Origin: a virus | Direction: 5' to 3' (one strand) | IMG/VR virus record: IMGVR_UViG_3300021171_000006 | Location: 1 to 64,000 of that record | DNA: 64,000 nt | Part shown: positions 7,484 to 24,325 of the stretch, in pieces | Layout of the letters: the number at the start of each line of letters is the position of its first letter | Position numbering within the stretch: position 1 is the first letter of the stretch | Notes under the pieces: model-generated | What the model saw: only the letters and a program-made list of their open reading frames with translations | The model's database searches: none | Told to the model about the DNA's origin: nothing | Position numbers and translations under genes: made by a program

Positions 7484-7804
7484 ATGGCAAAGCGCAAATC
7501 AGAGACCGCCGCCACTGCGGGGATCGCGATCGGGTTCAGCTTCGGCGACGGCATGCGCGAGCCGGTCGCGCCGGAGAGCTTCAACCGGAGCCAGAGCCGC
7601 CCGAACTTGCGGTTCGCCAATCTGGTCGAATTCGGCGAAAATCCGAACGGCTTCACGTCGATTACGCCGAACGGTGTCGGGCATGACAATGGTCTCGGCC
7701 ACAATCAGGATCGGTGGGGATGGAGCAACAAAGCCAACGGCGAGCGTTGGAGTGGCCAGAATCTCGATTGGGCCAAGCGCGGCGGAAACCGCACCGGCGA
7801 ATAA
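7484..7804 (+). CDS. Hypothetical protein
   Basis: GAGGA RBS; plausible codon usage. Confidence 0.55.
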   Translation: MAKRKSETAATAGIAIGFSFGDGMREPVAPESFNRSQSRPNLRFANLVEFGENPNGFTSITPNGVGHDNGLGHNQDRWGWSNKANGERWSGQNLDWAKRGGNRTGE

Positions 7805-8045
7805 GAGCGTGGCTTGCGCGGCTGCTCCGGCCGCGCGCTGAGGTCGCCCCGCTTCTCACGGTCGCCCCTCCGCGACAGAGGGATAGCATCGTGCCGCCGA
7901 ACTGGTTGCTTGCAACCGGAGACGCGCTTGAGGTGATGAGCCGCCGCTATCACCTGCTGGCCGTTCAGCGGGATTTCCAGGGAGCGAACAAGAGGTTCCC
8001 GGCGTTCAAAGCAGAATTTCTAAGCGAAATCGTGAAGCGGCTCTG

Positions 8046-8640: not shown

Positions 8641-9717
8641 ATGCCGTCACCCTTTCTCATTCTTGCATTGCCGCGAAGCCGAACTTTTTGGCTTTCGCGT
8701 TTCCTCTCATACCCGCCGTGGTCTTGCGGGCACGAGGAAGCGCGGCATCTGCGCAGTGTCGCCGATGTCCGCGCGTGGCTCCAGCAGGATCACACCGGAT
8801 CCGCCGAGACGGCTGTAGCGCGCTGGTGGCGCATTATCCCGCAGCTTTGCCCGGAGATGCGGGTCGTCGTCATTCGCCGGCCGGTCGATGAGGTGGTCGA
8901 CAGCCTCATGCGGCTCGACCTCGGATTTGAGCGGAGCCGGCTGCGGCCGATCATCGAGAAATACGATCGTGCGCTTGACCGGGTGGAGAGGCATCTGTCG
9001 CCCCTGTCGCTGCGCTTCGCCGATCTTGAGAACGAAGCCGATTGCGGGCGGGTGTTCGAGCGGTGCCTGGATCTGCCGCATGACCATGACTGGTGGGCGC
9101 GTTGGGCGCCGCAGCGCGTCGAGTGCGACATGCGGGCGATACTGCGCCACGCGCGGGCGTTCGCCCCGCAGATGGCGCTCACCGGTCGATCGCTTATGGG
9201 GCAATTGCGGCGACGGCATTCCGATCACCCTCATGTCATTGTGCCGGGAGACGACGGGATCGACATCTGCCGCGAGTCTCCCGAGCGGGTGTGGGCCGAT
9301 GGGGGTCCGCTGTTCGCCGAACACTGCCTCGCGGTCGGGGAGCCCGAGGACGAATACCAGCGCAAGAATCTGCCGTTGCTATGGCGGCTGGATGCGGCTG
9401 GAGCGCTGCACATCATCACGGCCAGGTGCAACGGGCGGCTGCTCGCCTACCTGTTCTCGTTCCTTGCGGAATCGCCCGAAAAGGTCGGTCTCCTGACCGC
9501 GACGCAAACGTTGTTCTTCGCCTGCAATGATGCGCCGCCGGGTTTGGGCCTGCGATTACAACGGGCTTCGATCGCCGATCTGCGCGCCCGTGGCGTGGGG
9601 GAGATCTACATGCGCGCCGGCGTGCGCGGGGCGGGCCCGAAACTCGGTGTCCTCTATCGCCGGCTCGGTGCGCAGCCGCATGGCGAATTTTTCAAGCTCG
9701 AATTGAAGGCGGCTTAG
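8641..9717 (+). CDS. Sulfotransferase-like/P-loop domain fused to GNAT acetyltransferase-like domain
   Basis: N-term ILALPRSRTFWL, CGHE, VVIRRP; C-term GLGLRL...GVLYRRLGA. Confidence 0.6.
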   Translation: MPSPFLILALPRSRTFWLSRFLSYPPWSCGHEEARHLRSVADVRAWLQQDHTGSAETAVARWWRIIPQLCPEMRVVVIRRPVDEVVDSLMRLDLGFERSRLRPIIEKYDRALDRVERHLSPLSLRFADLENEADCGRVFERCLDLPHDHDWWARWAPQRVECDMRAILRHARAFAPQMALTGRSLMGQLRRRHSDHPHVIVPGDDGIDICRESPERVWADGGPLFAEHCLAVGEPEDEYQRKNLPLLWRLDAAGALHIITARCNGRLLAYLFSFLAESPEKVGLLTATQTLFFACNDAPPGLGLRLQRASIADLRARGVGEIYMRAGVRGAGPKLGVLYRRLGAQPHGEFFKLELKAA

Positions 9718-11382: not shown

Positions 11383-12684
11383 ATGGCGGACACATCGCTC
11401 TCTCTGGACATAACAGCGCCGGCCCCCAGCGGGAGTGTTGCGGGGACGCAACTCGGCGGGATGCTGGCGGGGACGCAGCAGGATCGCTCCTCCCTACGGG
11501 CGGCTGGTCTCTCTTTCCCGGCTGAACTCTCGTCGATCCGCTCACAGGAAAAGGAGAGGGTCGACGCACTTGGACCTCCGCCACGCCTTACCCCCGAGCA
11601 GATGCAGCAGTATCTCGGGCCGGCACCGAAGCCGCAGACCCAGAGCCTTGTGGAGGAATGGGGTTCCCCGGCGATGATAATGGCGCTTCTCGGGTCGGCC
11701 TTTACCCGTCAGCCGCTGACCAATGCCCTCAACGCCGGCGGCGCAGTGATGAAAGCTTTTCAGCAACGCGACTTCGATGGGGCACGTTCAGCAGCCGCGC
11801 AATGGAAGGAGAACACCGACACCGCGCTCAAGCTGTACGAACTCCAGTCCAAGAGTTATGCCGCAGACATAAAGGCGATCCGCGAGGGGTCGGGTGACGC
11901 GATCAAGGATGCGGTAGCCAATCTTCGGGCGATGTCGGTCGCCTACAATGATCGGCCGCTGATGAACCTGCTTGCGGCCGGACGTTACGATTTAGCGGTC
12001 GATCGAGAAGATCGGCTTGCTAAGTCCGCCGCCGAGTTGCACACGAAGACCGAAATGATCAACGACGGTCTCACGAAACAACACGGCCTTTACGATGCGA
12101 CGACCGCTCTCGGAACCGCCAAGAAGGCGCTTGAGGCCGCGCAAAAGGGCGGCGACCAAGAAACGATCACGGCTGCGCAGACAGCTTACGACAACGCACA
12201 GGCGACCTATCAAAGCGCAGCCGACGATATGAAGGCGTGGGGAGACGCGCAGCAGGCGGCGAAGGGTGGGGCCAAACCACCAACCCGGGCCCAGCAGACC
12301 GACTCGCAGCTTAACGATAAGGCGCGCGCCGATCACGAAGCGCTGAGCAAGGGCGAGAGCGTAACCCACAACGACATCACGATATCGCCGGAGGATTGGG
12401 CGGCGCGCGACGACGCGATAAAATGGGGTCTGCTGTCTCAGCCGAAGCAGCACGCCATCCAGGACTTGATGAAACGTGCCAATATCCCGCAAGCCGCTGT
12501 CGGCGGACAGCCTGCCGCCAAGCCCGGCGGTGCTGCGCCAGCCGCTGGCGCGCCGCCAGCAAAATCGCCCCAGGAAACCCAGGCGCTCATTGCGCACGCT
12601 CGCGAGGCGATTGAAGCCGGGGCGGACCGCGACGCCGTAATAAAGAAATTGCGCGAAATGGGCGTTGATCCGTCGGGCTTGTAA
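11383..12684 (+). CDS. Internal virion/DNA ejection protein
   Basis: Helical and Ala-rich; between pilot-like and giant genes. Confidence 0.6.
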   Translation: MADTSLSLDITAPAPSGSVAGTQLGGMLAGTQQDRSSLRAAGLSFPAELSSIRSQEKERVDALGPPPRLTPEQMQQYLGPAPKPQTQSLVEEWGSPAMIMALLGSAFTRQPLTNALNAGGAVMKAFQQRDFDGARSAAAQWKENTDTALKLYELQSKSYAADIKAIREGSGDAIKDAVANLRAMSVAYNDRPLMNLLAAGRYDLAVDREDRLAKSAAELHTKTEMINDGLTKQHGLYDATTALGTAKKALEAAQKGGDQETITAAQTAYDNAQATYQSAADDMKAWGDAQQAAKGGAKPPTRAQQTDSQLNDKARADHEALSKGESVTHNDITISPEDWAARDDAIKWGLLSQPKQHAIQDLMKRANIPQAAVGGQPAAKPGGAAPAAGAPPAKSPQETQALIAHAREAIEAGADRDAVIKKLREMGVDPSGL

Positions 12685-15600
12685 TGCCGCCGCTCGACAG
12701 CAGCAATCCGTTCGGTGATCTGATTTCAGCCGCAAATGCAGCGAGCCCCCCGCCGCCCGCGCCAGCAACCGGGAATCCCTTTGCTGATCTTATCCCCGCG
12801 AAACCGGCGATCAAGCCGGCAGGGCCGACAGCGACCACCAATCCCTTTGCCGACCTGATCCCGAAACCTCCATCATGGACAGGGGTGGCTCGCGAGGCGG
12901 GCTGGAAGGGTCTTGTCCGGGGCGTCACCGAAACAGCAGAAGCGCCGACAGCGTTTCGCGATAGGCCACCTGAAAAGCCTGATACGTCGCCTGTCGGTCG
13001 TCTCTTGTCGCAGCCGATCAGCCGGGGTTATGCCGATCCGAAATGGTGGATCGCCCACATCGCTCATGGTGCAGCGGCTTCATCGCCGTCTTTGGCCTTG
13101 GGTTTGGGTGGGGCCGCTGCTGGCGGAGCCGTGGGCGGCCCGGTCGGAGGATTGATCGGCGGCGCTGGCGGCTTCGCGACAGGGTCGGCCGCCCAAACGG
13201 TCGCTCCAGCTTATATAAAGGCTCGGCAGGACGGCCTTGATCACGATGCGGCGGTCAAGCGCGCTATGACCGAGACTGGAATTGCCGCGCTGTTTGGGGC
13301 GGCCATGGGAGCGGCGCCAGTTGGCGTTGCTGCGGCTATCGAACGTCCTCTCTCTCGCGCACTCGCCGAAATTTTCGTGGTGCAACCCACGCTCGGCGTT
13401 GGTGAGGCGGCAACGACGGGGGCGGTCGAAGGTAAGATGCCGTCAGCCGATGAATTGGGGACCACCTATGCCGAACAAGCCGGCATGGGCGTCGGCCTGG
13501 TCGGGGCGCATGCGGCGGCGCGAAGGCTTATAGGCAGGGGGCCAAACGAACCATCAGATGAGGCGGTCCCCGAAGCCCCGCCGAAAGATATCGTCCCGCC
13601 GCCTCCGCCACCACCCGCTCCCTCGGCAACGAGACAGGAACCACCGCCGGTACGGGAAGGTCAGGAGCCGGCTCCGGGCCTCGACGCTGAGAAATTGCGA
13701 TCGTTTGGCATCACGCAGCTGAGCGACGGTACGTGGCGGACCCCCGACGGCAAAGCCGTGTGGGATCGCAACGGCAACCCACTCAACCGTACCGCCGAAA
13801 CGTGGACGCCTCCGCCCGTCGCGGAACCCGCCAAGGGCAATGTTCCAGGTGGAACACCGGCGACACCAGAAGCGCCCGCTGCCGCAGAAGCGCGCCCCGA
13901 ACCTCCGATCCCTGCCGCCGTGCCGACGCCAGGGTCTCCGCCTCTCACGGATTACGGGGCTGAGTACGAGGCTAACAGAGCCAGAGTGGCGGCAGCCGAA
14001 CGTGATGAACGCGTTCCACCGGCAACCCCTGACGAAATGTTGGAAATGAATAAACGCGTCAGCGAAGGCGACGTGAACCAAGGGGGTGCGTGGCATCCGA
14101 GTTCGCTGGTCTGGCCGCATGTTGAGCAGGAACAGACGCTTCGCGCTGCCGAGGCGCTTCTTCCTCCGGGGTGGAAGGCAGAGCCGCGGAACTTTGGATC
14201 GACAAACTACGGTGACAATTCGGACAGCCCGGGCAGGCTCCGAGATTCGGGCCGCAATGTCGCGATTATTAACCCAGAGGGCGCGACCGTAGGTCTTATG
14301 CAGAGGCCGGGTGATGTGAGCCGGCCATGGTTTCGTGATGCCGTTAGCGGCAAGGATACGCGCGGCGTCTATCAGGCGGCTACTGAGGCGGGAGAAGCTG
14401 CGGCCGGCGTTCCACCGGGAACCATCAGGCCGCCATTCCCACCCGGTCCGGGAGACCGGATGCCGGCAGCGAACGAGGCGGGGGCCGAATCGGGGACGCC
14501 CACGCCGAACCCCGCGACAGCCAAACGGATGCCGCGATCGACGATCCGCGAGGACACGGCGTTCATCCCGTCTAGCGGCGCATCGTTTCCAATCGAATAC
14601 GCCGTGGTCGAGGCGCGTGACCTGATCCCGTCGCACAACGAAGACCTGTCGCCAAACCCGGCCTTTCCACAAGCGCTACAACCCCGCAGCCGCGAACGGG
14701 CCGAGACCGAGGCCCAGATCAACGCTATCCTCAATGGCGATCCGTCCGACCCGGCAGCGACCTTCCGACCGGAGCTCATGGGCGAGAACCCAGACGCGAC
14801 GAACGGCGCGCCCATCGTAGGATGGGAAGGCTATGTCGAGAGCGGCAACGCCCGAACGATCGCGCTGCGGCGGGCCTATTCCCGCAAGCTGCCCCAAGCG
14901 GAGCGGTATCGCGAGTACCTTGCGGCGCAAGGGTATCCGGTCGAGGGCATGAAGGAACCGGTGCTGGTGCGGATTAACCGGGCGCCCATGAATATGCCAC
15001 AGCGGGAGCAGTTGGCGCGCGATCTCAATGTCGCCCCGCAGGCCACGATGTCGGCAACCGATCGGGCGATGGCTGACGCGGCACAAATTCCGCCCGACCT
15101 GCTGCGGCTCTATGGTGACGGCGATATCTTCTCCGCAGGCAACGCGCCGTTCTGGCGCAGCATCCTGACGCGCATCGCGAAGCCAGCCGAATTACCCGCG
15201 CTCACGGATCCGGAGGGCGGGTTGTCGCCGGCGGGGCAGACCCGATTGCGCAATGCCGTTCTCGCCAAGGCCTACGGGGATCCGCAATTCGTGGCGGCGC
15301 TGGTCGAGGACGCGGACTCGAACATCAAGGCGATTGGGAACGCTCTTCTCGACGCGGCCCCCCGTTGGGCGCAACTGAGGCAGGCCGTCGCCGATGGTCG
15401 AATCGATCCGAGTTTGGACGTGACGTCCTCGGTGATCGAGGCGGTGCGGCTCATCCGTTACGCCCGCGACAGCAAGCGGAACGTTGCCGAGTTCATGAAG
15501 CAGCGAGGCATGTTCGACGATGGCGTGTCGCCAAATACCGAGGGTGTGCTGTCGTGGCTTCTTGGGGCACCGGATTGGACTCGGCGATATTCGCGCGATA

Positions 15601-18600
15601 AGATGTCATTGGCGCTCGGCGAATATGCCGCCAGCGCGATGCGCGAACCCGGCATGCTGGGGACCGCGCCGCTCTCGTCGCAGGAGTTGATCGAAAATGC
15701 CCGACAGCGAGCACAAGGAGCAGCCGGAGACCTATTCTCCCCGGGTCTGGCCGAACCCCCGGGCGCAGGAATTGTTCGGGGAGGCGCTGGCGAAGGTAGG
15801 CCGGGAGACGAAGGACTTTCGGCTGCAGACGCTCGGCGCGCTGCACAAGAAGGCGGCGAAGGCGACGCAAGCCTAACCAAGCCGGCGCGTTCCACAACTG
15901 ACGAAGCCCGCGAATTTGCCTCCAAATATCCGATAGGCCCGGAAGGCACGCATCAGGCGGCGGTCGATTATGTCGTCGATGAGGGGCGTCGTACCGGGCA
16001 TGAGTATTTTGCTGCGGTCGATCACACGACCGACGACATCACGCATGCCGGCACTTCGGAGTCGCCCAGCTGGATCAGGTTCGACAAGTCGCTAATCGAC
16101 CGCCTTTGGGATCCTCGCGAAGAGCCGCTGGCGATCCATCACAATCATCCGCTCGACCTGCCGCTGTCGGCGCCAGATCTCGTCCTGCTCGCGATGCCGG
16201 GAGCGGGAAGTGTTACATCGCACGGCCCGGATGGGAGAGTCAGTTCTGCCGGGTTGACGCTCGACACGCGATGGAGATTGGCCGGGTTAAGCCCGCAAAC
16301 GCGGCAGGGTTGGCTTACCAGCGAGATCGTGAAGGCGACGAACGCCGCCAGGGACGCATTCGCTCCATTGTGGACCCGTGGCATGCTGTCGTCGGATCGC
16401 ACCGACCTATTGATCGCTGAGGGCCGCAATCGCCTTCTTGCAGCCTCCGGGGTGATCGACCATATCAGCAGCACTCCAGTACCGCCGTGGGCCACGCCGC
16501 TATTGGTGAAGGCGCTCACGCAACTGACGCCCGAACTATCCGAGGAAATCGCGCATGTTCGGCTTGATCGATCCACCGGGTTTCACAGCCCCGCTGACGC
16601 AGTGGCAGCAATTTCTCGCGCTCATGTTGCAGCTTCCGCAGGACGACCCGCAGGTGCAGTTGGCGGTGCAGGAGGCGCAGGAGGTCTTGGCGCGCAGGCA
16701 GGGCGAGGAGAGCCATCCAAACCCCCACCCCCCGAACTGAGCGGCATCGACGACGAGAAATCCACTTGGCCTCTCGAAGACCTGTTTGACGACGCCGAGC
16801 GCGAGATCGCGATGGATGCGAGCGGGATCTTCCCGCCTCGTCCGCCTCCTCCACCCGGTTTCACCAAGCGCATGCTGTCGGTCTTCGGGGCAAACCCGGA
16901 TTCGCCGTGGCGGGAGCGCCCGTGGATGCTGCCGTGGGAACGGCTTCTCGGGGCACCATCAAACATGGCGCGCTACAATGTCGGCGGTGTCTCGACGCAG
17001 AAATGGATCGCCGACCGCGCCCGCGATCAGCGGTCAGAGGTGTTGTTCAGCACCTACAAGGAGAGCCTAGCGCCGTTCACCAGCTTGACGGCGGATGAGC
17101 ACCAGAAGATCAATGCGGTGCTGGAAATCCAGCGGTTGAAGGGTGAGGAGCCGCCGCTCGACGGTGCGCCGATTTCCGCCACAAACGACACGCACACCCT
17201 CGCCTACCACTCAAAGCCCGGAGAGACACTCACGCTCGATACGCCGCGCCTGATCGCCGGCTATACGGCTGTACGGAAGACGTTGCGCGGCATCTACAAC
17301 GACTACATCGCCGCCACGGCAAAACGGCACGGATGGGAGGGCGAGCCGACGAGCGCCGCGATCAATGCGAGGGCGGAAGCGGAGAGAGCCTTTGGGCGCC
17401 CCGGAGAAGCGCGGCGGCTTGAATTTGTCGGCAAGATCGTGGGGTTGGCGGAATTCGCCCGCCGCAACGCTTACGTGCCCTTCATGCGGGAGGGGGATTA
17501 CTATTTCCGGGTGAAGCCCAAGACCGGCACCCCAGACAGACCGGGTGTACCGGGGTGGACCGGCGAAGGCTTTGCGCCGACCGTTTGGAACTCGCGCATC
17601 CAGTCGCGCTCAGGTCTCGACAAACTCACCGGACAGCCGATCGGCCCGTCGGCGACGATCAGAGACAACCTCGCCGAGATCCGGAAAACCTTCCCGGAGA
17701 GCCAATACACGATTGAGCACGGCTATTTCAAACCGGAGGAAAACCAGCTTCGCAAAATCGGGATCGAGACGATCGAAGATTTGTTCGACGCGGTAGGCCG
17801 CGATTTCCGGCGGGAATGGCGAGCGCGCGTCAAGGCCTCCGACAATCCCGAAGCCATGCGCAAGGCAGCCGATCAGGAAGAGGCAGAACACCGATTGGCT
17901 GTCGAGACGATCATGAACCAGATTTACGAGCGTCTTAGGGCCGGGTTCAAGCACGAGAGTCTGAATATTCCGGGGTATTCAGAGGATCTGAGCCACAGCA
18001 TCGCCCGGTACACAGTCTGGCTCTCAAACCACATCGCCGATCTTGAGTATCGCCAACGTATCGAGGCGGCCGATCAAGTGGTGGAAAGCTCCCCGGATGC
18101 TGAGACGCGCGGCATGTGGCAGCAGCGTGCGAGGGAGTTAGCTGAACCCCGGCGGGATTACGGGACCCAGCGGTTGCGTAACGCGGCCTTCTATTGGGCG
18201 CTTGGGGGAAACTTCGCCTCGACCATCAAGGTGATGCTGCACGGCCCGATGCTTGGATGGCCGCTGCTCTCGACCGGCGTCGGGAAAGCGCAATCCGCTA
18301 AGGAATATTTCCCGGCGTTCGCGAAACTTCTGAGTACGGTCAGGCTTGATCCGCAGGTCGGGTTTCGGCTCGACCCGCTTTCGCAGGCACGTAACGCTAG
18401 TGAGCGGGCGCTGATAGAGGAGAACCTGAAAAACGGCCGGTTGCACGCAAGCGGAGCCGAGGAGCTTGGGTTCGGCGCGATCCATGAAAAAGGGATGGAG
18501 GGCCTGGAGCCGCGCCACCGGATGCAACGACGCGTATTGAAAATCTGGGGAGCGAATATCGCTGCCGCCGATCAGACGATCCGTGGCGCCCTCCTCTTGT

Positions 18601-19910
18601 CTGCCTACCGGGTAGCGTCAAATCCGGCAACGATGGCCCGGCTTGATCGGATCTGGACGAGAGGCGACGCGCTGTGGCGTGACGCAGACTGGAACAAGGA
18701 GAGACGCGCGATCGACAGCGAGCTCGCGATGCTGCGAGAGGCGCGCGATGCCACCGGTAGCGATATACAAGACGACCGGATCACCGAGTTGGCCGAACGC
18801 CGCCGCGAGATCGAACGGCAGATGCCGGCCCGGTTCGCCGAATTCATCACCGACCGTGGAGCTGGGATCTGGGGGTCGGCGAATCGGCCTGAATTCGCGC
18901 GCCATCCTGCCGGGGGCCTCTTTTATCAGTTCCGGAATTACGAACTGAATTACCTATCCACGTTCCATCAGCTGATGTGGCACATGGGTCCGGAGGGAAA
19001 GCACGCGGCCCTTCTGATGCTGGCAAGCCTTGGACTGATGGCCGGCGCTGGCGGCATTCCATTCGCCCAGGACATCGAGGGGGCCAGCGAGTGGATCTAT
19101 AAATTCATAACCGGAATCGACCCGAACCTGAACGAACGCTTCCTTAGATGGATGGAAACCGACCCCTTGGGTTTGGGGAAGGATTTCGGCAAATACGTGC
19201 TCTACGGCGTGCCGGGGCAGATGCCGCACGGGGTGGCCATTGGACAGGGATTGTCGTTCGGCGATCTGATCAGCCGAAACGCCCGCTCGGTGCTCGACGT
19301 CGCTCCATCATTGTCGATCTTCGCCGGCGGTCTACAGCACGCGGCTGAGCGTTACCGGGGAGAGAATCCGACGGGCGACCTCACGGCTCCGGACGTGGCA
19401 AAATGGCTGTCGGTCGGCGGCGAGGTTATGCCGAACGCCATCAAGAACCTGGTCAAGGCGTATGGCGTCTACCCCGAAGAGGGTGTCCGCACGATGGCCG
19501 GCAAGACCGTGGTGCCGCCATGGCAGGTCACGGCGGAAGACAAATTGGCGCGCGCGGTGGGTCTGACCTCGGGTCATATCGAGAAGGTGTACCAGGAGTG
19601 GGAGCGGGATTACCGGCTGGGCGAAGCGTCCAACGCGAAGTCTGCCGCGCTGAACAAGCACCTCGCGTCTCTGGCAACGGACATGGTGAACGCAGAGCAT
19701 CGTGGCGACAAGGCGGCGGCGAAGGCGGCCGAGGATGAGGCGACCAGAATTGCTACGGCAGCCGGCGGAGATCCGAAAGCGCACGCCAGGGTATTCCGCG
19801 ATGCTGTCAAGGCCGCGCAAGACCCGATGCAGGGCCGGCTGCGGCACCTTCCGAAGGCCGTTCGGGGAGAGGCGGCAAAACCGCTGTTCATAGAACCGGG
19901 CGCACCGTAA
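12684..19910 (+). CDS. Large polyvalent ejection protein (DdrB-like ParB, JAB/MPN-like and PLxRFG-like domains)
   Basis: YAVVEARDLIPSH..LQPRSR..GAPIV..VESGNART; GHE...HHNHP..LSAPDL; YVPFMREGDY. Confidence 0.75.
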   Translation: MPPLDSSNPFGDLISAANAASPPPPAPATGNPFADLIPAKPAIKPAGPTATTNPFADLIPKPPSWTGVAREAGWKGLVRGVTETAEAPTAFRDRPPEKPDTSPVGRLLSQPISRGYADPKWWIAHIAHGAAASSPSLALGLGGAAAGGAVGGPVGGLIGGAGGFATGSAAQTVAPAYIKARQDGLDHDAAVKRAMTETGIAALFGAAMGAAPVGVAAAIERPLSRALAEIFVVQPTLGVGEAATTGAVEGKMPSADELGTTYAEQAGMGVGLVGAHAAARRLIGRGPNEPSDEAVPEAPPKDIVPPPPPPPAPSATRQEPPPVREGQEPAPGLDAEKLRSFGITQLSDGTWRTPDGKAVWDRNGNPLNRTAETWTPPPVAEPAKGNVPGGTPATPEAPAAAEARPEPPIPAAVPTPGSPPLTDYGAEYEANRARVAAAERDERVPPATPDEMLEMNKRVSEGDVNQGGAWHPSSLVWPHVEQEQTLRAAEALLPPGWKAEPRNFGSTNYGDNSDSPGRLRDSGRNVAIINPEGATVGLMQRPGDVSRPWFRDAVSGKDTRGVYQAATEAGEAAAGVPPGTIRPPFPPGPGDRMPAANEAGAESGTPTPNPATAKRMPRSTIREDTAFIPSSGASFPIEYAVVEARDLIPSHNEDLSPNPAFPQALQPRSRERAETEAQINAILNGDPSDPAATFRPELMGENPDATNGAPIVGWEGYVESGNARTIALRRAYSRKLPQAERYREYLAAQGYPVEGMKEPVLVRINRAPMNMPQREQLARDLNVAPQATMSATDRAMADAAQIPPDLLRLYGDGDIFSAGNAPFWRSILTRIAKPAELPALTDPEGGLSPAGQTRLRNAVLAKAYGDPQFVAALVEDADSNIKAIGNALLDAAPRWAQLRQAVADGRIDPSLDVTSSVIEAVRLIRYARDSKRNVAEFMKQRGMFDDGVSPNTEGVLSWLLGAPDWTRRYSRDKMSLALGEYAASAMREPGMLGTAPLSSQELIENARQRAQGAAGDLFSPGLAEPPGAGIVRGGAGEGRPGDEGLSAADARRAAQEGGEGDASLTKPARSTTDEAREFASKYPIGPEGTHQAAVDYVVDEGRRTGHEYFAAVDHTTDDITHAGTSESPSWIRFDKSLIDRLWDPREEPLAIHHNHPLDLPLSAPDLVLLAMPGAGSVTSHGPDGRVSSAGLTLDTRWRLAGLSPQTRQGWLTSEIVKATNAARDAFAPLWTRGMLSSDRTDLLIAEGRNRLLAASGVIDHISSTPVPPWATPLLVKALTQLTPELSEEIAHVRLDRSTGFHSPADAVAAISRAHVAASAGRPAGAVGGAGGAGGLGAQAGRGEPSKPPPPELSGIDDEKSTWPLEDLFDDAEREIAMDASGIFPPRPPPPPGFTKRMLSVFGANPDSPWRERPWMLPWERLLGAPSNMARYNVGGVSTQKWIADRARDQRSEVLFSTYKESLAPFTSLTADEHQKINAVLEIQRLKGEEPPLDGAPISATNDTHTLAYHSKPGETLTLDTPRLIAGYTAVRKTLRGIYNDYIAATAKRHGWEGEPTSAAINARAEAERAFGRPGEARRLEFVGKIVGLAEFARRNAYVPFMREGDYYFRVKPKTGTPDRPGVPGWTGEGFAPTVWNSRIQSRSGLDKLTGQPIGPSATIRDNLAEIRKTFPESQYTIEHGYFKPEENQLRKIGIETIEDLFDAVGRDFRREWRARVKASDNPEAMRKAADQEEAEHRLAVETIMNQIYERLRAGFKHESLNIPGYSEDLSHSIARYTVWLSNHIADLEYRQRIEAADQVVESSPDAETRGMWQQRARELAEPRRDYGTQRLRNAAFYWALGGNFASTIKVMLHGPMLGWPLLSTGVGKAQSAKEYFPAFAKLLSTVRLDPQVGFRLDPLSQARNASERALIEENLKNGRLHASGAEELGFGAIHEKGMEGLEPRHRMQRRVLKIWGANIAAADQTIRGALLLSAYRVASNPATMARLDRIWTRGDALWRDADWNKERRAIDSELAMLREARDATGSDIQDDRITELAERRREIERQMPARFAEFITDRGAGIWGSANRPEFARHPAGGLFYQFRNYELNYLSTFHQLMWHMGPEGKHAALLMLASLGLMAGAGGIPFAQDIEGASEWIYKFITGIDPNLNERFLRWMETDPLGLGKDFGKYVLYGVPGQMPHGVAIGQGLSFGDLISRNARSVLDVAPSLSIFAGGLQHAAERYRGENPTGDLTAPDVAKWLSVGGEVMPNAIKNLVKAYGVYPEEGVRTMAGKTVVPPWQVTAEDKLARAVGLTSGHIEKVYQEWERDYRLGEASNAKSAALNKHLASLATDMVNAEHRGDKAAAKAAEDEATRIATAAGGDPKAHARVFRDAVKAAQDPMQGRLRHLPKAVRGEAAKPLFIEPGAP
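15697..15876 (+). CDS. Nested 59-aa gene in +1 frame of the giant gene
   Basis: AGGAG at 15682-15686; GC-rich third codon positions while the host frame is a low-complexity linker. Confidence 0.5.
   Translation: MPDSEHKEQPETYSPRVWPNPRAQELFGEALAKVGRETKDFRLQTLGALHKKAAKATQA
16555..16740 (+). CDS. Nested 61-aa gene in +1 frame of the giant gene (putative immunity protein)
   Basis: GAGGA RBS; amphipathic helical product; host frame is a G/A-rich linker after the JAB-like domain. Confidence 0.55.
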   Translation: MFGLIDPPGFTAPLTQWQQFLALMLQLPQDDPQVQLAVQEAQEVLARRQGEESHPNPHPPN

Positions 19911-19918
19911 AAATCGGC

Positions 19919-19948
19919 CTTGTCATCGAAGCTGGCGACGGCTATATC
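19919..19948 (+). promoter_or_regulatory. Sigma70 promoter of the tRNA operon
   Basis: CTTGTC-N17-CTATAT; expected start site coincides with ATG 19955. Confidence 0.7.
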
Positions 19949-19954
19949 ATCGTC

Positions 19955-20053
19955 ATGTTCTGGTCATCCATCCTGTCGACAACGCCGCGAGCCGATTGCC
20001 TCGGGCATATGCAGCCCGAAAATCGGTATTCGGGAGGGGTTCGGCTCGGATAG
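19955..20053 (+). CDS. Leaderless 32-aa attenuator leader peptide MFWSSILSTTPRADCLGHMQPENRYSGGVRLG
   Basis: 19 amino acids and 26 distinct codons; last codons overlap the antiterminator strand. Confidence 0.65.
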   Translation: MFWSSILSTTPRADCLGHMQPENRYSGGVRLG

Positions 20054-20081
20054 ACCGAGCGCAAGGTCCAAACGGACACCG

Positions 20082-20114
20082 AACCCCGCCCTGAAACGAG
20101 CGGGGTTTTTGTTT
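20082..20114 (+). terminator. Intrinsic terminator (attenuator)
   Basis: AACCCCGC/GCGGGGTT stem plus T-tract; competes with pairing 20032-20044/20079-20091. Confidence 0.8.
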
Positions 20115-20207
20115 GACCATTGATCGAGCGACCCGGAAGGTGCCGTGGAATCCCGGCATCACAGAGCCGTATAGCCGGCCGCAGCGATCTTAGATTTTGT
20201 AATTTTC

Positions 20208-20281
20208 GGGGTACTCGTCCAATGGGAGGGCTCCTGTTTTGCAAGCAGGCAATCGGGGTTCGATTCCCCGGTACTCCACCA
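20208..20281 (+). tRNA. tRNA-Ala(TGC)
   Basis: Cloverleaf, G3:U70, CCA. Confidence 0.9.
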
Positions 20282-20285
20282 ATTC

Positions 20286-20359
20286 GCGGCCATCGTCTAA
20301 CGGCAAGACACGAGTCTGCCAGTCTCGGAATAGGGTTTCGACTACCCTTGGCCGCTCCA
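20286..20359 (+). tRNA. tRNA-Gly(GCC)
   Basis: Cloverleaf, U73, CCA. Confidence 0.85.
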
Positions 20360-20363
20360 ATAT

Positions 20364-20458
20364 GGGCGTCGGCTCTGGTGAGCGGGTGCGCCTTATAAGC
20401 GCGCGAGAGCGGGCGGACGGCCTGCAACGGTAGGGATCGTAACCCTAGACGCCTCCCA
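20364..20458 (+). tRNA. tRNA-Ile(TAT) with long variable arm
   Basis: CT-TAT-AA loop; V-arm GCGGGC/GCCTGC; C73; CCA. Confidence 0.75.
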
Positions 20459-20462
20459 TTTA

Positions 20463-20534
20463 TGCGGGTAGACCAAGGGTCCACTTAGGCTCATAACCTA
20501 GGAGGGGTCGGGGCAGTACCGACACCCGCAACCA
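20463..20534 (+). tRNA. tRNA-Met(CAT), fMet-like acceptor
   Basis: TGCGGGT/ACCCGCA; CT-CAT-AA; atypical T-loop. Confidence 0.75.
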
Positions 20535-20537
20535 TTC

Positions 20538-20613
20538 GCCCAGATAGCAAAGGTAGTCCTCGCGCGCCGTTGAAGGCGACGAAATCTTGGTGCGATCCCA
20601 AGTCTGGGCACCA
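20538..20613 (+). tRNA. tRNA-Phe(GAA)
   Basis: GCCCAGA/TCTGGGC; TT-GAA-GG loop. Confidence 0.75.
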
Positions 20614-20614
20614 C

Positions 20615-20689
20615 GCGGCTATGACCGATTGGCAAAGGTCTCAGTCTTCCAAACTGAAGTTCCGGGTTCGATTCCCGGTAGCCGCTCCA
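20615..20689 (+). tRNA. tRNA-Gly(TCC)
   Basis: Cloverleaf, CCA. Confidence 0.9.
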
Positions 20690-20696
20690 GTTTCAT

Positions 20697-20774
20697 TGGC
20701 GGGTAGCACTCAGGGTGAGCGCGTCCGGCTGTTAACCGGAATTGAGGTCGGTTCGATCCCGACCCCGCCAGCCA
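20697..20774 (+). tRNA. tRNA-Asn(GTT)
   Basis: Cloverleaf, G73, CCA. Confidence 0.9.
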
Positions 20775-20776
20775 TT

Positions 20777-20844
20777 ACCGCCGCGATCCGGGATCAACGG
20801 AGCCTCCAAAACTCCGGATGAGGGTTCGACTCCTTCCGGCGGTG
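20777..20844 (+). tRNA. tRNA-Trp(CCA)
   Basis: CT-CCA-AA loop; minimal D-arm; no encoded CCA tail. Confidence 0.75.
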
Positions 20845-20848
20845 CTAA

Positions 20849-20923
20849 GTCCCGATGGCAGAGCGGCAAATGCGCGGGTCTGCAAAACCCGTTACGCCGG
20901 TTCAACTCCGGCTCGGGACTCCA
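20849..20923 (+). tRNA. tRNA-Cys(GCA)
   Basis: Cloverleaf, U73. Confidence 0.9.
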
Positions 20924-20930
20924 GTTTGAT

Positions 20931-21005
20931 GGCGGGTATCGTCTAATGGTAGGACGGGAGATTGTGGATCTCCTAACGCGGGTTCGATCCCCGCTACTCG
21001 CCCCA
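20931..21005 (+). tRNA. tRNA-His(GTG)
   Basis: G-1:C73, cloverleaf. Confidence 0.9.
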
Positions 21006-21079
21006 GCCCGGTCAGCACGATGGCCGTGCAGCGGTCTTGTAAACCGCTGATGGGAGTTCGATCCTCTCACCGGGCACCA
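21006..21079 (+). tRNA. tRNA-Thr(TGT)
   Basis: Cloverleaf, CCA. Confidence 0.88.
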
Positions 21080-21162
21080 GACAAGAGGAGGGGGTATGAT
21101 GGTCAATCAGGACGACATTCGCCTTCTCCGGGAGATCACCGCGCGGCAGCGCGATGAGTTGA

Positions 21163-21237
21163 TGGGGATTAGCACACCAGCTAGTGCATCGGTCTCTGAC
21201 ACCGAGGAATCCGGGGCGGCACCGGAATCCCCTTCCA
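21163..21237 (+). tRNA. tRNA-Gln(CTG)
   Basis: CT-CTG-AC loop; T-loop GGCGGCA. Confidence 0.8.
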
Positions 21238-21245
21238 ACACAGAC

Positions 21246-21320
21246 GGCGGGTTTTCGAGTGGCCTCGACGCGAGTCCTTGAAATTCGTAGATCAGGGTTC
21301 GATCCCCTGGCCCGCTTCCA
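21246..21320 (+). tRNA. tRNA-Gln(TTG)
   Basis: CC-TTG-AA loop (C33); CCA. Confidence 0.75.
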
Positions 21321-21396
21321 CGCTCCTTCGGCTACTGGCTAGGCCGCCACCCTCTCAAGGTGGAGAAGTCGGGATCGAAACCCACAGGAGCGACCA
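21321..21396 (+). tRNA. tRNA-Glu(CTC)
   Basis: CCACC-CTCTCAA-GGTGG; CCA. Confidence 0.82.
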
Positions 21397-21402
21397 GTTT
21401 AT

Positions 21403-21477
21403 GCCCCGCTAGCCCAACTTGGTAGAGGCGCCTGATTTAGGATCAGGAGGTTCGGCGTTCGAGTCGCCGGCGGGGTA
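21403..21477 (+). tRNA. tRNA-Leu(TAG), short variable loop
   Basis: TT-TAG-GA loop; A73; no encoded CCA. Confidence 0.85.
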
Positions 21478-21478
21478 C

Positions 21479-21564
21479 GGAGGGCGCCGCTAAATGGCTG
21501 GCGACTGGTCCTGAAAACCAGGGTTTCCGAAAGGATAGGGGTTCGATTCCTCCGCCCTCCGCCA
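21479..21564 (+). tRNA. tRNA-Ser(TGA)
   Basis: Long V-arm, G73, CCA. Confidence 0.85.
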
Positions 21565-21569
21565 ATCAT

Positions 21570-21657
21570 GGAAGATGCTCGGGCTGGCTCCCGAAGCGGT
21601 TTGCTAAACCGTAGTGGCTCGCAAGGGCCAATGGTTCGACGCCATCATCTTCCGCCA
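21570..21657 (+). tRNA. tRNA-Ser(GCT)
   Basis: Long V-arm, G73, CCA. Confidence 0.88.
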
Positions 21658-21659
21658 CC

Positions 21660-21733
21660 GCCTTCGTAGCACAACAGCAGTGCGCCGCTTTGGTAAGGCG
21701 GAAATCCCGGAGCATCACCGGGCGAAGGCTCCA
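21660..21733 (+). tRNA. tRNA-Thr(GGT)
   Basis: TT-GGT-AA loop; T-loop AGCATCA. Confidence 0.82.
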
Positions 21734-21734
21734 G

Positions 21735-21818
21735 CCGTGGTGAAACCGCGAGGCTGCGGAACGTGTCTGTAAAACACGGCCCTTCGGGGGAGCTGTTCGA
21801 TTCGGCCACCACGGACCA
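21735..21818 (+). tRNA. tRNA-Tyr(GTA) with C1:G72
   Basis: CT-GTA-AA loop; V-arm; CCGTGGT/ACCACGG-A-CCA. Confidence 0.8.
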
Positions 21819-21823
21819 ATTTT

Positions 21824-21899
21824 GCCGGCGTCTTCCAACGGCCAGGAAGCCCGCCCGATAAGCGGGTAACGTTCGGTTCGACTCCGACCGCCGGTCCCA
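21824..21899 (+). tRNA. tRNA-Ile(GAT)
   Basis: CC-GAT-AA loop; C73; CCA. Confidence 0.85.
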
Positions 21900-21903
21900 G
21901 TAT

Positions 21904-21977
21904 GGGCTCGTAATTCAATGGTAGAATAGCTGGCTCTTAACCAGCCCATGAGGGTTCGATTCCTTCCGGGCCTACCA
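21904..21977 (+). tRNA. tRNA-Lys(CTT)
   Basis: Cloverleaf, CCA. Confidence 0.9.
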
Positions 21978-21980
21978 CTT

Positions 21981-22055
21981 GCGCCTGTCGCACTCTGGGA
22001 GTGCCGCCGCCTGTCTAGCGGATGCAGGAGGGTTCGATCCCCTTCGGGCGCGCCA
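21981..22055 (+). tRNA. tRNA-Asp(GTC)
   Basis: CT-GTC-TA loop; G73. Confidence 0.82.
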
Positions 22056-22056
22056 C

Positions 22057-22133
22057 CTGCGCGTTACGGTAGCGGCTAACCGCCCTGGTTTGGGACCAGG
22101 AATTCGGGGGTTCGAGTCCCTCCGCGCAGACCA
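22057..22133 (+). tRNA. tRNA-Pro(TGG)
   Basis: C1:G72, A73. Confidence 0.88.
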
Positions 22134-22138
22134 TTTTC

Positions 22139-22210
22139 GCCCTTCTCAGCGGACCTGGGCGCGGGTTTCCTAAACCTGCTGACGCGGTTCGACTCCGCGG
22201 AGGGGCGCCA
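22139..22210 (+). tRNA. tRNA-Arg(CCT)
   Basis: TT-CCT-AA loop; CCA. Confidence 0.82.
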
Positions 22211-22213
22211 ATA

Positions 22214-22291
22214 CGGGGTGTAGCTCAGTCAGGCCAGAGTGTCCGGTTCGGAACCGGAAGATCGGTGGTTCAAATCCACCCACCCCGACCA
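22214..22291 (+). tRNA. tRNA-Pro(CGG)
   Basis: Cloverleaf; A37. Confidence 0.9.
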
Positions 22292-22295
22292 ATTT

Positions 22296-22369
22296 GCCTC
22301 GCTCGTCTAATGGTAGGGCCGCTGGCTTACATCCAGCAGATGGCGGTTCGATTCCGTCGCGAGGTACCA
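22296..22369 (+). tRNA. tRNA-Val(TAC)
   Basis: Cloverleaf, CCA. Confidence 0.9.
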
Positions 22370-22443
22370 CGCGCGGTCGTCTAAGGAAGGACACTTGCCT
22401 TTCAAGCAGGGTAACGCGGGTTCAAATCCCGTCCGCGCGACCA
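22370..22443 (+). tRNA. tRNA-Glu(TTC)
   Basis: Cloverleaf, CCA. Confidence 0.88.
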
Positions 22444-22447
22444 ACTC

Positions 22448-22519
22448 GCCCTCACCAGTGGATCTGGCTTGGTGGCTACGAACCACCTATGCGCGGTTCG
22501 ATTCCGTGTGGGGGCTCCA
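22448..22519 (+). tRNA. tRNA-Arg(ACG)
   Basis: CT-ACG-AA loop; CCA. Confidence 0.85.
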
Positions 22520-22523
22520 TTCC

Positions 22524-22596
22524 GGGCTTAGCGCTGGGACGCGGGCGGGTCTTCTAAACTTGCCGACGCACGGTTCGATTCCGTGTAAGCCCACCA
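22524..22596 (+). tRNA. tRNA-Arg(TCT)
   Basis: CT-TCT-AA loop; CCA. Confidence 0.82.
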
Positions 22597-22597
22597 T

Positions 22598-22669
22598 GCG
22601 CTCACCAGCGGATCTGGCGTCTGGCCTCCGAAGCCGGAATGCGGCGTTCGACTCGCCGTGGGCGCGCCA
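22598..22669 (+). tRNA. tRNA-Arg(CCG)
   Basis: CT-CCG-AA loop; CCA. Confidence 0.85.
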
Positions 22670-22672
22670 TTT

Positions 22673-22749
22673 GGGCGCCTATGCAAATTGGCAAAGCAGT
22701 TTCGCTCAAAACGAAATGTATCAGGGTTCGACTCCCTGGGCGCCTACCA
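22673..22749 (+). tRNA. tRNA-Leu(CAA), short variable loop
   Basis: CT-CAA-AA loop; A73; CCA. Confidence 0.85.
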
Positions 22750-22750
22750 T

Positions 22751-22825
22751 GCCTCGCTGGTGTAACGGCAGCATATCCGGCTTTTAACCGGTAAGGACAG
22801 GGTTCGAATCCTTGGCGGGGTACCA
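22751..22825 (+). tRNA. tRNA-Lys(TTT)
   Basis: Cloverleaf, CCA. Confidence 0.88.
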
Positions 22826-22827
22826 TA

Positions 22828-22901
22828 GCTGGCGTAGCATAGCGGCAGTGCAGCCGGTTCGTACCCGGCCGACGCTGGTTCGAGTCCAGCCGCCAGCACC
22901 A
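22828..22901 (+). tRNA. tRNA-Thr(CGT)
   Basis: Cloverleaf, CCA. Confidence 0.88.
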
Positions 22902-22912
22902 GGAGCACCACG

Positions 22913-23485
22913 ATGTCATCCGCAGCCCGGAAGCTAGGATCGCTGCGGACGCTTGTGCTCAATGCCGATGGCCGCCCTCTGACGACTTGGCCGCTCAGCC
23001 TTGTCTCGGCTCAAGATGCGGTTTCGACGATCTGGCGTGATCGCGCCTACGTGGTCGAGACATGGGAGGATGCGTTCTTTCGTTCGCCCTCCGTGACGAT
23101 CGCGGTGCCGAAGGCGATGATGCTGCGCGAGTATGCGCACACCGGAAAGCACCCGAAGTTCTGCCGGGCGTCGATCTACCTGCGTGATCGGTTTACGTGC
23201 CAATTCTGCGGCAAGCGATTCGAGCGCTCCGAGTTGACGTTCGACCACCTGCTGCCGCGCCGGCTGGGCGGACGCACGGTATGGGACAACATTCTTTCGG
23301 CGTGCCTGCGGTGCAACGCACAGAAGGGCGACCGCACGGCCGAGCAAGCGGGCATGCGTCCGCTGAGCCTGCCGCGCCAGCCGACCACGGCAGAATTGCT
23401 ACGTGCGGGGCTTGAATTGCTGCCCAACGACATCCGCGACGATTTTGGTTCCTGGTTGTATTGGAACACACCGCTGCAAAGCTGA
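22913..23485 (+). CDS. HNH endonuclease associated with the tRNA array
   Basis: LVLNAD N-terminus; RDRFTCQFCG...TFDHLLPR..GG...N...CLRCN..KG. Confidence 0.9.
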   Translation: MSSAARKLGSLRTLVLNADGRPLTTWPLSLVSAQDAVSTIWRDRAYVVETWEDAFFRSPSVTIAVPKAMMLREYAHTGKHPKFCRASIYLRDRFTCQFCGKRFERSELTFDHLLPRRLGGRTVWDNILSACLRCNAQKGDRTAEQAGMRPLSLPRQPTTAELLRAGLELLPNDIRDDFGSWLYWNTPLQS

Positions 23486-23511
23486 TTGGGACGTGGTAGC
23501 GTTCTGCCGGT

Positions 23512-23928
23512 ATGGCCGAAGTAACCCCCTTCCCCGGTTCGCTCTCGGCCCTCCTTGAGACCGAGTTCACCCGGCTGCTCCAAGAGCTCGCCGGCAAGTC
23601 GCTGCGCGAGCGCGCCCGCATGTTGAACACGGCGACCGACTACCTGTTGCGAATGCAGGCGCTCGGCACCCGCGCCGACCACACGCTCGCCGACACGATC
23701 GAGGCGCAGTTTGTGGCATTGCTTACCGAGATCCAATCTGCTAAGGATGACGCCGAGGGGACGTGCGGCCTTACGGTAGCCGAGCGCATAAACGTAGCGA
23801 ACTCGGCTCTCGCGTTTCTGTCCAAGCGACGGAAACTCAAGAGGCACGACCTCAAAAGTGGAATCGACCTCCTTCAAAGCCAATTCCGCGACGCCCGTCG
23901 AGCTGGCCGGCGTCGAGGTGCTTCCTGA
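23512..23928 (+). CDS. Hypothetical protein
   Basis: Helical ORF with plausible codon usage. Confidence 0.55.
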   Translation: MAEVTPFPGSLSALLETEFTRLLQELAGKSLRERARMLNTATDYLLRMQALGTRADHTLADTIEAQFVALLTEIQSAKDDAEGTCGLTVAERINVANSALAFLSKRRKLKRHDLKSGIDLLQSQFRDARRAGRRRGAS

Positions 23929-24325
23929 GCGACCGCGCCGCGCGCCGTCATTGGTGCGCCCAGCTGAGGAGCCGACCCCCGCCTCGCCCGATACCAATGC
24001 CGTCCTGGCGCAGATTGCGCGGGTGCATGAACAGCAGCAGGCGCTCGCCGTCCATCTGACGCGCCAGACCCAACAGGCGCAGGCGCAGAGCCGCATCAAT
24101 CAGCAAGTCCTGGCCGTCACGATTGCTCTGACGCGCGTGCTCGCCGTCCGCTTTCTGCTCTTCCTGTCGCTCATCGGCGCCTTTGTGCTGGCGCTCGGGG
24201 CGATGCAGTTCCAGACGATCCCAGCAATCGCCGTACTCATCGCCTACGCCCTCCTGACAGTTGGCCCGATCGTGGCTTTGGAAATACGGCATGGCCGCGC
24301 GCTGCCGCCGCCGCAGGCCGGGTGA
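23858..24325 (+). CDS. Membrane protein (2 TM helices)
   Basis: Two hydrophobic C-terminal segments. Confidence 0.6.
   Translation: MESTSFKANSATPVELAGVEVLPERPRRAPSLVRPAEEPTPASPDTNAVLAQIARVHEQQQALAVHLTRQTQQAQAQSRINQQVLAVTIALTRVLAVRFLLFLSLIGAFVLALGAMQFQTIPAIAVLIAYALLTVGPIVALEIRHGRALPPPQAG

Follow-up and report, generated by a model that had tools for sequence, protein, structure and literature searches.

The window analyzed here is the first 64 kb (64,000 nucleotides) of the 91,353-bp IMG/VR virus contig IMGVR_UViG_3300021171_000006, which originates from an uncultured soil phage and has an estimated completeness of 59% and a G+C content of approximately 62%. We focused on the leader of a dense tRNA array, which lies on the plus strand, as do all features of the window described below. 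The leader is located between a giant gene (12684–19910), encoding a virion-type protein of 2408 residues with a ddrB-ParB domain, and the array itself (20208–22901), which is followed on its 3′ side by an HNH endonuclease gene and then tail-like genes. ARAGORN detected 25 tRNAs in the array at its default setting and 31 with a relaxed threshold. Reading by eye added a Met(CAT)-like and a Tyr(GTA)-like gene in two gaps of the array, giving 33 tRNAs for all 20 amino acids, so that the complete array reported in an initial annotation of this DNA was borne out. RNA contigs in two of the sequencing runs described below (X3 and X4) also cover these proposed regulated genes. The leader is read here as a ribosome-dependent (leader-peptide) transcription attenuator at the head of a phage tRNA operon, for which we estimate a probability of roughly 55%.

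A sigma-70-type promoter (19919–19947) was located immediately 3′ of the giant gene. It consists of the −35 hexamer CTTGTC (19919–19924), a 17-nt spacer, and the −10 hexamer CTATAT (19942–19947), and matches the Sinorhizobium sigma-70 consensus CTTGAC-N17-CTATAT (PMC2873474) at 11 of 12 positions, the consensus being rhizobial. The pattern CTTGNC-N16–18-CTATAT occurs once in the window against an expectation of 0.01. The rhizobial motif with up to two mismatches is not enriched genome-wide (4 sites vs. approximately 6 in shuffles), and a scan of 18500–24000 for E. coli-type promoters called no site. Seven nucleotides separate the −10 hexamer from ATG 19955, whose A is the eighth nucleotide after the hexamer, and the initial annotation had predicted the transcription start on this ATG.

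Transcription was evaluated with three soil metatranscriptome runs and two soil DNA runs, which carry three study codes and possibly belong to one campaign. The RNA runs were used as assembled contigs placed on 19000–23500, from which true ends and minor species are not readable. Each metatranscriptome contained one contig of the leader (19994–20187, 19975–20172, and 19985–20135), starting 20–40 nt past the predicted start site. All three cross the terminator described below and extend 21–73 nt beyond its T-run. Further RNA contigs cover most of the array up to approximately 23000, with no bridging contig over 20188–20227. None of the three RNA runs gave a contig over 19604–19905, the end of the giant gene, whereas one DNA run covers this segment; the leader and array are hence transcribed far more than the adjacent giant gene. 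The limits of the leader contigs lie symmetrically about 20–35 nt inside 19955 and 20207, which fits a complete leader freed by RNase P at the first tRNA, and their depth equals or exceeds that of the array. The spacer between the terminator and the first tRNA (20115–20207) contains no promoter-like site, and its structure is not significant (z = −1.2). An array promoter downstream of 20114, which the initial annotation had considered, is argued against because the RNA starts near 19955 and crosses the terminator and because the spacer lacks such a site, although the contigs leave 20188–20227 unbridged. The promoter motif and the contig starts in three metatranscriptomes thus agree with the proposed start, and support a separate transcription unit beginning at or near ATG 19955.

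ATG 19955 opens a predicted leaderless leader open reading frame (ORF) of 32 codons (19955–20053), which starts with Met-Phe and ends at a UAG stop (20051–20053), so that the predicted transcript would begin with a short ORF whose start signal is usable. A recount reproduced the reported composition: the ORF holds 19 of the 20 amino-acid types, Lys alone being absent, and its codons 1–25 include 24 different triplets. At least 19 types were reached with P = 0.001 among open 32-codon windows of the window and P = 0.0024 among open dinucleotide shuffles of the ORF; the corresponding values for 24 distinct codons of 25 were P = 0.003 and P = 0.015. The initial annotation had concluded that the leader samples nearly all tRNAs. 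The diversity on which this was based stands, but the conclusion was overstated, as by strict wobble the ORF uses 20 of the 31 array tRNAs (P 0.15–0.22, chance level), offers no Lys codon for the two Lys tRNAs of the array, and presents 14 amino acids in the modelled sensing window described below. The unusual property of the leader ORF is therefore its amino-acid and codon diversity, not its coverage of the array tRNAs. For a complete array, the criterion that the composition of the ORF mirrors the tRNAs behind it reduces to such high diversity (P ~0.002), and is weakly discriminating.

The leader as a whole is more structured than its shuffles (z = −4.2). A canonical intrinsic terminator lies at 20081–20114 (−15.9 kcal/mol, z = −3.4), with a stem formed by 20081–20091 and 20098–20108 and a T5-G-T3 tail. 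It was both the best canonical and the only strong intrinsic terminator found by a simple scan of the 91-kb contig; the phage seems to use very few of the canonical kind. The last codons of the ORF (20032–20044) are complementary to 20079–20091 at 12 of 13 positions, so that the pairing of the ORF end with the terminator 5′ arm, as well as the terminator itself, is found where the initial annotation had put it. Folding extends this pairing to a Y-shaped antiterminator domain (20029–20095; −37.1 kcal/mol, z = −4.8, with none of 200 shuffles as stable). Its closing helix joins 20029–20043 with 20080–20095, that is, the last ORF codons (region 2, 20029–20043) with the terminator 5′ arm (region 3, 20079–20095). 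The domain encloses a 6-bp hairpin (20044–20060) that holds the UAG stop inside its 5-nt loop, a feature shared with leaders of phiCbK-family phages, and a small second hairpin (20066–20077). Another hairpin, H1 (19991–20027; −19.7 kcal/mol, z = −3.7, with none of 200 shuffles equally stable), lies inside the ORF and may serve as a pause hairpin. A possible anti-antiterminator was overlooked in the initial annotation: in the growing transcript, region 1 (19957–19990, within codons 1–12) is predicted to form the 5′ strand of a long hairpin with 20030–20060. The terminator thus lies between the ORF and the tRNAs, and the 2:3 antiterminator shares bases with both its 5′ arm and the ORF end; the models support mutual exclusion of the two structures.

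The equilibrium fold favors the Y domain and leaves the terminator a pairing probability of approximately 17%. When 20020–20060 was blocked, as the initial annotation had suggested, the terminator was restored in the fold, and the same was obtained with 20036–20066 blocked. For a growing transcript up to 20084, the minimum-energy fold is the long hairpin of codons 1–12 with 20030–20060. The two full-length states are nearly isoenergetic (−68.3 kcal/mol for the long hairpin plus terminator and −69.9 kcal/mol for H1 plus the Y domain), with an estimated barrier of 17.7–19.3 kcal/mol between them and of approximately 15.7 kcal/mol from the 1:2 hairpin to the antiterminator. As modelled, the leader behaves like a switch whose outcome is decided kinetically and which follows the classical 1:2, 2:3, and 3:4 logic; the 1:2 pairing probably makes termination the default without translation. 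A 30-nt ribosome footprint was then slid along the ORF in the model. With A-site codons 1–19 the antiterminator was obtained with 8 of 8 pairs, and with codons 20–33 (to the stop) the terminator with 9 of 9 pairs. Since antitermination was given by codons 1–19 alone, the sensing window would comprise 14 amino acids rather than 19, with 18 different codons after the AUG. The proposal that full translation allows termination and stalling gives antitermination is consistent with this footprint model, but its extension to stalling on any tRNA is overstated, as antitermination is limited to codons 1–19. Apart from these folds, contigs of the second soil DNA run (X2) end at 20061 and resume at 20104, within the antiterminator/terminator, which suggests strain variation exactly in the switch.

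The structures lead to the following putative mechanism, for which we infer leaderless translation of the ORF, a kinetic choice of fold, and the physiological signal. The 70S ribosomes would start on the 5′-terminal AUG. When decoding is fast, a ribosome would reach the UAG in the loop of hairpin 20044–20060 and sit on region 2, allowing the terminator to form and leaving little tRNA precursor. A ribosome delayed within about codons 1–19 would instead cover region 1 and leave region 2 free; the latter could then pair with region 3, and RNA polymerase would continue into the 33 tRNA genes. If no translation takes place, the first-formed 1:2 hairpin would probably favor termination. Such a leader would gauge decoding capacity in general, not the supply of a single amino acid.

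Leaders of the same design were found in cultured phages of Alphaproteobacteria. They share a layout of promoter, N7, ATG, short ORF, stop at a hairpin, terminator, and tRNAs, and the −35/N17/−10/N7/ATG geometry recurs in four leaders, those of the window, phiCbK, CcrRogue, and Lacusarx, which represent three phage lineages. In Sphingobium phage Lacusarx, one tRNA sub-array is preceded by TTGACA-N17-TATCAT-N7-ATG and a 22-codon ORF (9118–9186), in which 19 of the 21 residues after Met are amino acids served by the tRNAs that follow (seven amino acids in all). Of 96,258 null windows, only one scores as high, namely the ORF itself, and each of the nine tRNAs that follow has an exactly cognate codon in the ORF. 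In a second Lacusarx ORF (7791–7850), 15 of 18 residues fall within the set of six amino acids served by its own sub-array (54 of 102,222 null windows), and a terminator follows this ORF just before the first tRNA. For Caulobacter phage CcrRogue, ORF 4350–4445 contains an 8-residue run from the Phe/Val/Ile/Gln set of its sub-array and a strong terminator after it. An annotated 45-codon gene of the same phage (2446–2583) starts with ATG-TTC and encodes almost exclusively Ala, Leu, Ser, Thr, Lys, Pro, and His; a terminator lies downstream, 12 nt before tRNA-Pro, and no obvious promoter was seen upstream. The composition of this gene matches best the second sub-array downstream (Lys/Leu/His/Ala, P = 4e-5) and weakly the adjacent Pro-Pro-Thr group (P = 0.07). 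Both CcrRogue leaders are kept in at least 26 Caulobacter phage records including phiCbK, in whose record the terminators are annotated.

An alignment of five phiCbK-family phages (CcrRogue, phiCbK, BL57, Ccr10, and Magneto) revealed conserved promoter hexamers with a variable spacer, and an in-frame 3-nt indel and several synonymous changes in the ORF. The stop codon (TAG or TAA) occupies a constant column within the loop of a small hairpin, which carries a compensatory change. By this pattern of substitutions, the leader ORF of the family is conserved in a coding-type manner. An invariant 11-nt segment of the ORF is able to pair with the terminator 5′ arm. Folding of the full-length leader predicts 1:2 together with 3:4; the predicted fold is 2:3 as long as region 4 has not been transcribed, and also with the sensing codons covered. 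The window leader resembles those of the phiCbK family and Lacusarx in geometry, in an ORF of comparable size (19–45 codons in the cultured phages), in a stop in or next to a small hairpin, and in the order of terminator and tRNAs: its UAG lies in the loop of 20044–20060, and the terminator and tRNAs follow. Three of the comparison ORFs also start with ATG-TTC, as does the window ORF. It differs in having no detectable sequence homology to them and in being maximally diverse before a complete tRNA set, whereas their ORFs are of low complexity and mirror a partial set. The design is not universal, as no such leader precedes the tRNAs of Streptomyces phage JPandJE and Mycobacterium phage Crossroads. 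Conservation upstream of other tRNA arrays, a check proposed with the initial annotation, thus revealed same-design, tRNA-matched leaders in Lacusarx and the phiCbK family and none in two actinophages. The window leader apparently belongs to an undescribed class of tRNA-gene leaders that also includes those of the phiCbK family and Lacusarx. As leaders built this way exist in cultured phages, with ORFs that mirror the tRNAs behind them, a decoding-sensing leader is supported as the best reading of the window element.

Several observations weigh against the attenuator reading. The predicted start is known from the motif and from contigs starting 20–40 nt away, not to the nucleotide, and the RNA contigs report read-through only and carry no information on regulation. 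All three forward frames are open across most of the GC-rich leader, so an open ORF is in itself no evidence, and the amino-acid diversity was spotted post hoc in a scan that selects such cases. The chance-level use of the array tRNAs and the missing Lys codon point in the same direction. Among the structures, the 1:2 pairing by itself is not above chance (P 0.08–0.11), and the energy gap between the terminator and its competitor is marginally unusual (P = 0.054, about the top 5% of shuffles). Unlike that of the window leader, the equilibrium fold of the phiCbK-family leaders includes the terminator, and details of the mechanism may differ. Searches of GenBank phages, IMG/VR, JGI contigs, and GTDB genomes yielded no relative of the window leader, which therefore has no covariation or coding-conservation evidence of its own. 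Lastly, an alphaproteobacterial host is weakly hinted at by the promoter motif and by an M16 (pitrilysin-type) peptidase of the phage (contig positions 74827–76086). The named cellular relatives of this peptidase are few (approximately 42% identity) and mostly from Stellaceae (Alphaproteobacteria), together with one gammaproteobacterium (Thiohalocapsa); a profile search with it gave distant hits only (32% identity or less).

The alternative that survives best, though we regard it as rather unlikely, has no regulatory switch at all: the promoter would drive the tRNA operon, the element would be a folded 5′ leader or a stable small RNA, cut by RNase P at 20208, and its terminator would be leaky or usually hidden by the Y fold. 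The equilibrium preference for the antiterminator agrees with this, as do RNA contigs that span from about 20 nt past the start to about 20 nt before the RNase P site at a depth not below that of the array. A stand-alone small RNA could also make use of the promoter and terminator, yet all three RNA contigs continue past the T-run, as judged from contig ends only. Such a passive leader leaves unexplained the placement of the contig's only strong terminator on the 3′ strand of the fold, the ATG at the predicted transcription start site, the diversity of the ORF, and the parallel with the ORF-bearing leaders of phiCbK and Lacusarx. In our estimate, it is improbable that the terminator/antiterminator pair responds to a cue other than the ribosome (for instance a protein, a small ligand, temperature, polymerase speed, or an RNA such as a tRNA) and that the ORF is fortuitous. 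It is true that the well-supported parts of the leader are RNA structures and not the ORF, that every frame is open in this GC-rich sequence, and that the 1:2 pairing tying the switch to the ORF is not significant. Against this, an Rfam search assigned the leader to no family at E-values up to 10, riboswitch and T-box models included; the best hits in 19900–20215, none below E = 0.78, were Thr and Trp leaders and two sRNA families, which were terminator-driven and far below gathering scores. Moreover, the ATG lies exactly at the predicted start in the geometry of cultured-phage leaders with coding-conserved, tRNA-matched ORFs, and the amino-acid diversity of the ORF is unusual. That the hairpin is the ordinary terminator of the giant-gene operon, with promoter motif and ORF arising by chance and the tRNAs transcribed by late read-through, is highly improbable: the giant gene does end at 19910 on the same strand with no other terminator after it, but the RNA contigs begin after 19955 while the last 300 nt of the gene are bare in three RNA runs with DNA present, the promoter motif is expected 0.01 times per window, and two relatives of the gene have no comparable terminator or tRNAs behind them.

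Beyond the attenuator as such, a more far-reaching version may be entertained tentatively, with the odds somewhat against it. The leader may represent a pan-decoding sensor, in which a leaderless test ORF of the greatest possible codon diversity frees a full replacement tRNA set as soon as any one out of many host tRNAs becomes scarce, uncharged, or cleaved, and which belongs to a widespread undescribed attenuator class including the phiCbK leaders matched to partial tRNA sets. The trigger could be host shut-off or an attack by anticodon nucleases; the putative link to such nucleases is plausible.

To our knowledge, next to nothing has been described of how phages regulate their own tRNA genes; a literature search found no paper describing leader-peptide control of these genes, and the Lacusarx genome paper leaves the leaders unmentioned. 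The purpose of phage tRNAs is itself debated; proposals include codon compensation, the substitution of host tRNAs as they decay, and evasion of defences that cut tRNAs (e.g., eLife 2023, PMC10264068). If the attenuator reading is true, a trp-style attenuator with tRNA output would couple decoding capacity and tRNA supply in a direct feedback loop. Leader-peptide attenuation, which is a known kind of control, would be new in its use before tRNA genes, and its reach would grow from one amino acid or a few to the simultaneous sensing of most. The present analysis contributes metatranscriptome support for the transcription unit, a fuller structural model, and the cultured-phage leaders. Since the same layout is carried by phiCbK-family phages of Caulobacter crescentus and by Sphingobium phage Lacusarx, the idea is testable in a model host.

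Among known systems, the enterobacterial thr, ilvGMEDA, and ilvBN attenuators employ one leader peptide, translated from a Shine-Dalgarno site, to sense two or three related amino acids via 1:2, 2:3, and 3:4 pairings. The window leader is similar to these in its alternative pairings and in the sensing of several amino acids by one leader, and differs in the number involved (14–19), the predicted leaderless start, and the tRNA output. T-box leaders also report tRNA status through a terminator and antiterminator. T-boxes, however, have uncharged tRNA as their direct ligand, act on synthetase and amino-acid genes, and are found typically in Firmicutes; the window leader has no T-box match. In construction, the window leader resembles the leaderless trpL attenuator RNA of Sinorhizobium meliloti (rnTrpL, trpE(G)). 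The latter has an RpoD-type promoter and is transcribed from the AUG of its short leader ORF; its three alternative stem-loops include an antiterminator and a terminator, and it gives rise to a small RNA that is released (PMC6614838). It contains consecutive Trp codons and senses one amino acid for a biosynthetic gene, whereas the window ORF has no codon run, 19 amino-acid types, and phage tRNAs behind it.

Searches for relatives were made with several parts of the contig. An exact 25-nt leader motif had no match in IMG/VR, and the leader is not repeated elsewhere in the 91-kb contig. The C-terminal part of the giant protein had no match in IMG/VR or GenBank phages, and its profile gave distant relatives only in IMG/VR, JGI contigs, and GTDB genomes, with no tRNA array behind the gene. 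The closest relatives of the giant protein were P0002 (45%), P0003, and P0004; P0003 alone had no match in IMG/VR, and the whole records of three distant relatives contain 0–2 tRNAs.

Some minor features were also noted in the comparison phages. In Lacusarx, a strong terminator (9318–9355) follows the first tRNA (Ser-CGA) of the sub-array led by the 22-codon ORF, so that the eight remaining matched tRNAs lie behind a second stop signal. Upstream of Lacusarx tRNA-Pro (5690–5770), a TTGACA-N17-TATTAG promoter is followed immediately by a terminator-like hairpin with no ORF, and the 274-nt gap after this tRNA (6077–6350) contains unannotated tRNA-like sequences, one of them with a CAT anticodon loop. 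In CcrRogue (approximately 4570–4655) and in the same alignment columns of four other phiCbK-family records, an unannotated class-II tRNA (anticodon GTA, Tyr; CCA end) immediately precedes the annotated tRNA-Phe, and a Tyr codon is present in the upstream leader ORF.

At the far end of the window array, the HNH endonuclease gene (22913–23485) starts 12 nt past the last tRNA, and the RNA contigs as well as the DNA contigs of another sample all stop at approximately 22981–23015, in the 5′ part of this gene. Within the array, the tRNA at 20364–20458 is 95 nt long with anticodon TAT and a long variable arm, and was called Ile by ARAGORN. The gap between tRNA-Thr (end 21079) and tRNA-Gln (start 21163) contains AGGAGG, a strong Shine-Dalgarno-like sequence, followed by ATG 21096. 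This ATG opens a 61-codon ORF (region 21083–21281) that overlaps both Gln tRNA genes, and could be a second, internal leader or a small gene.

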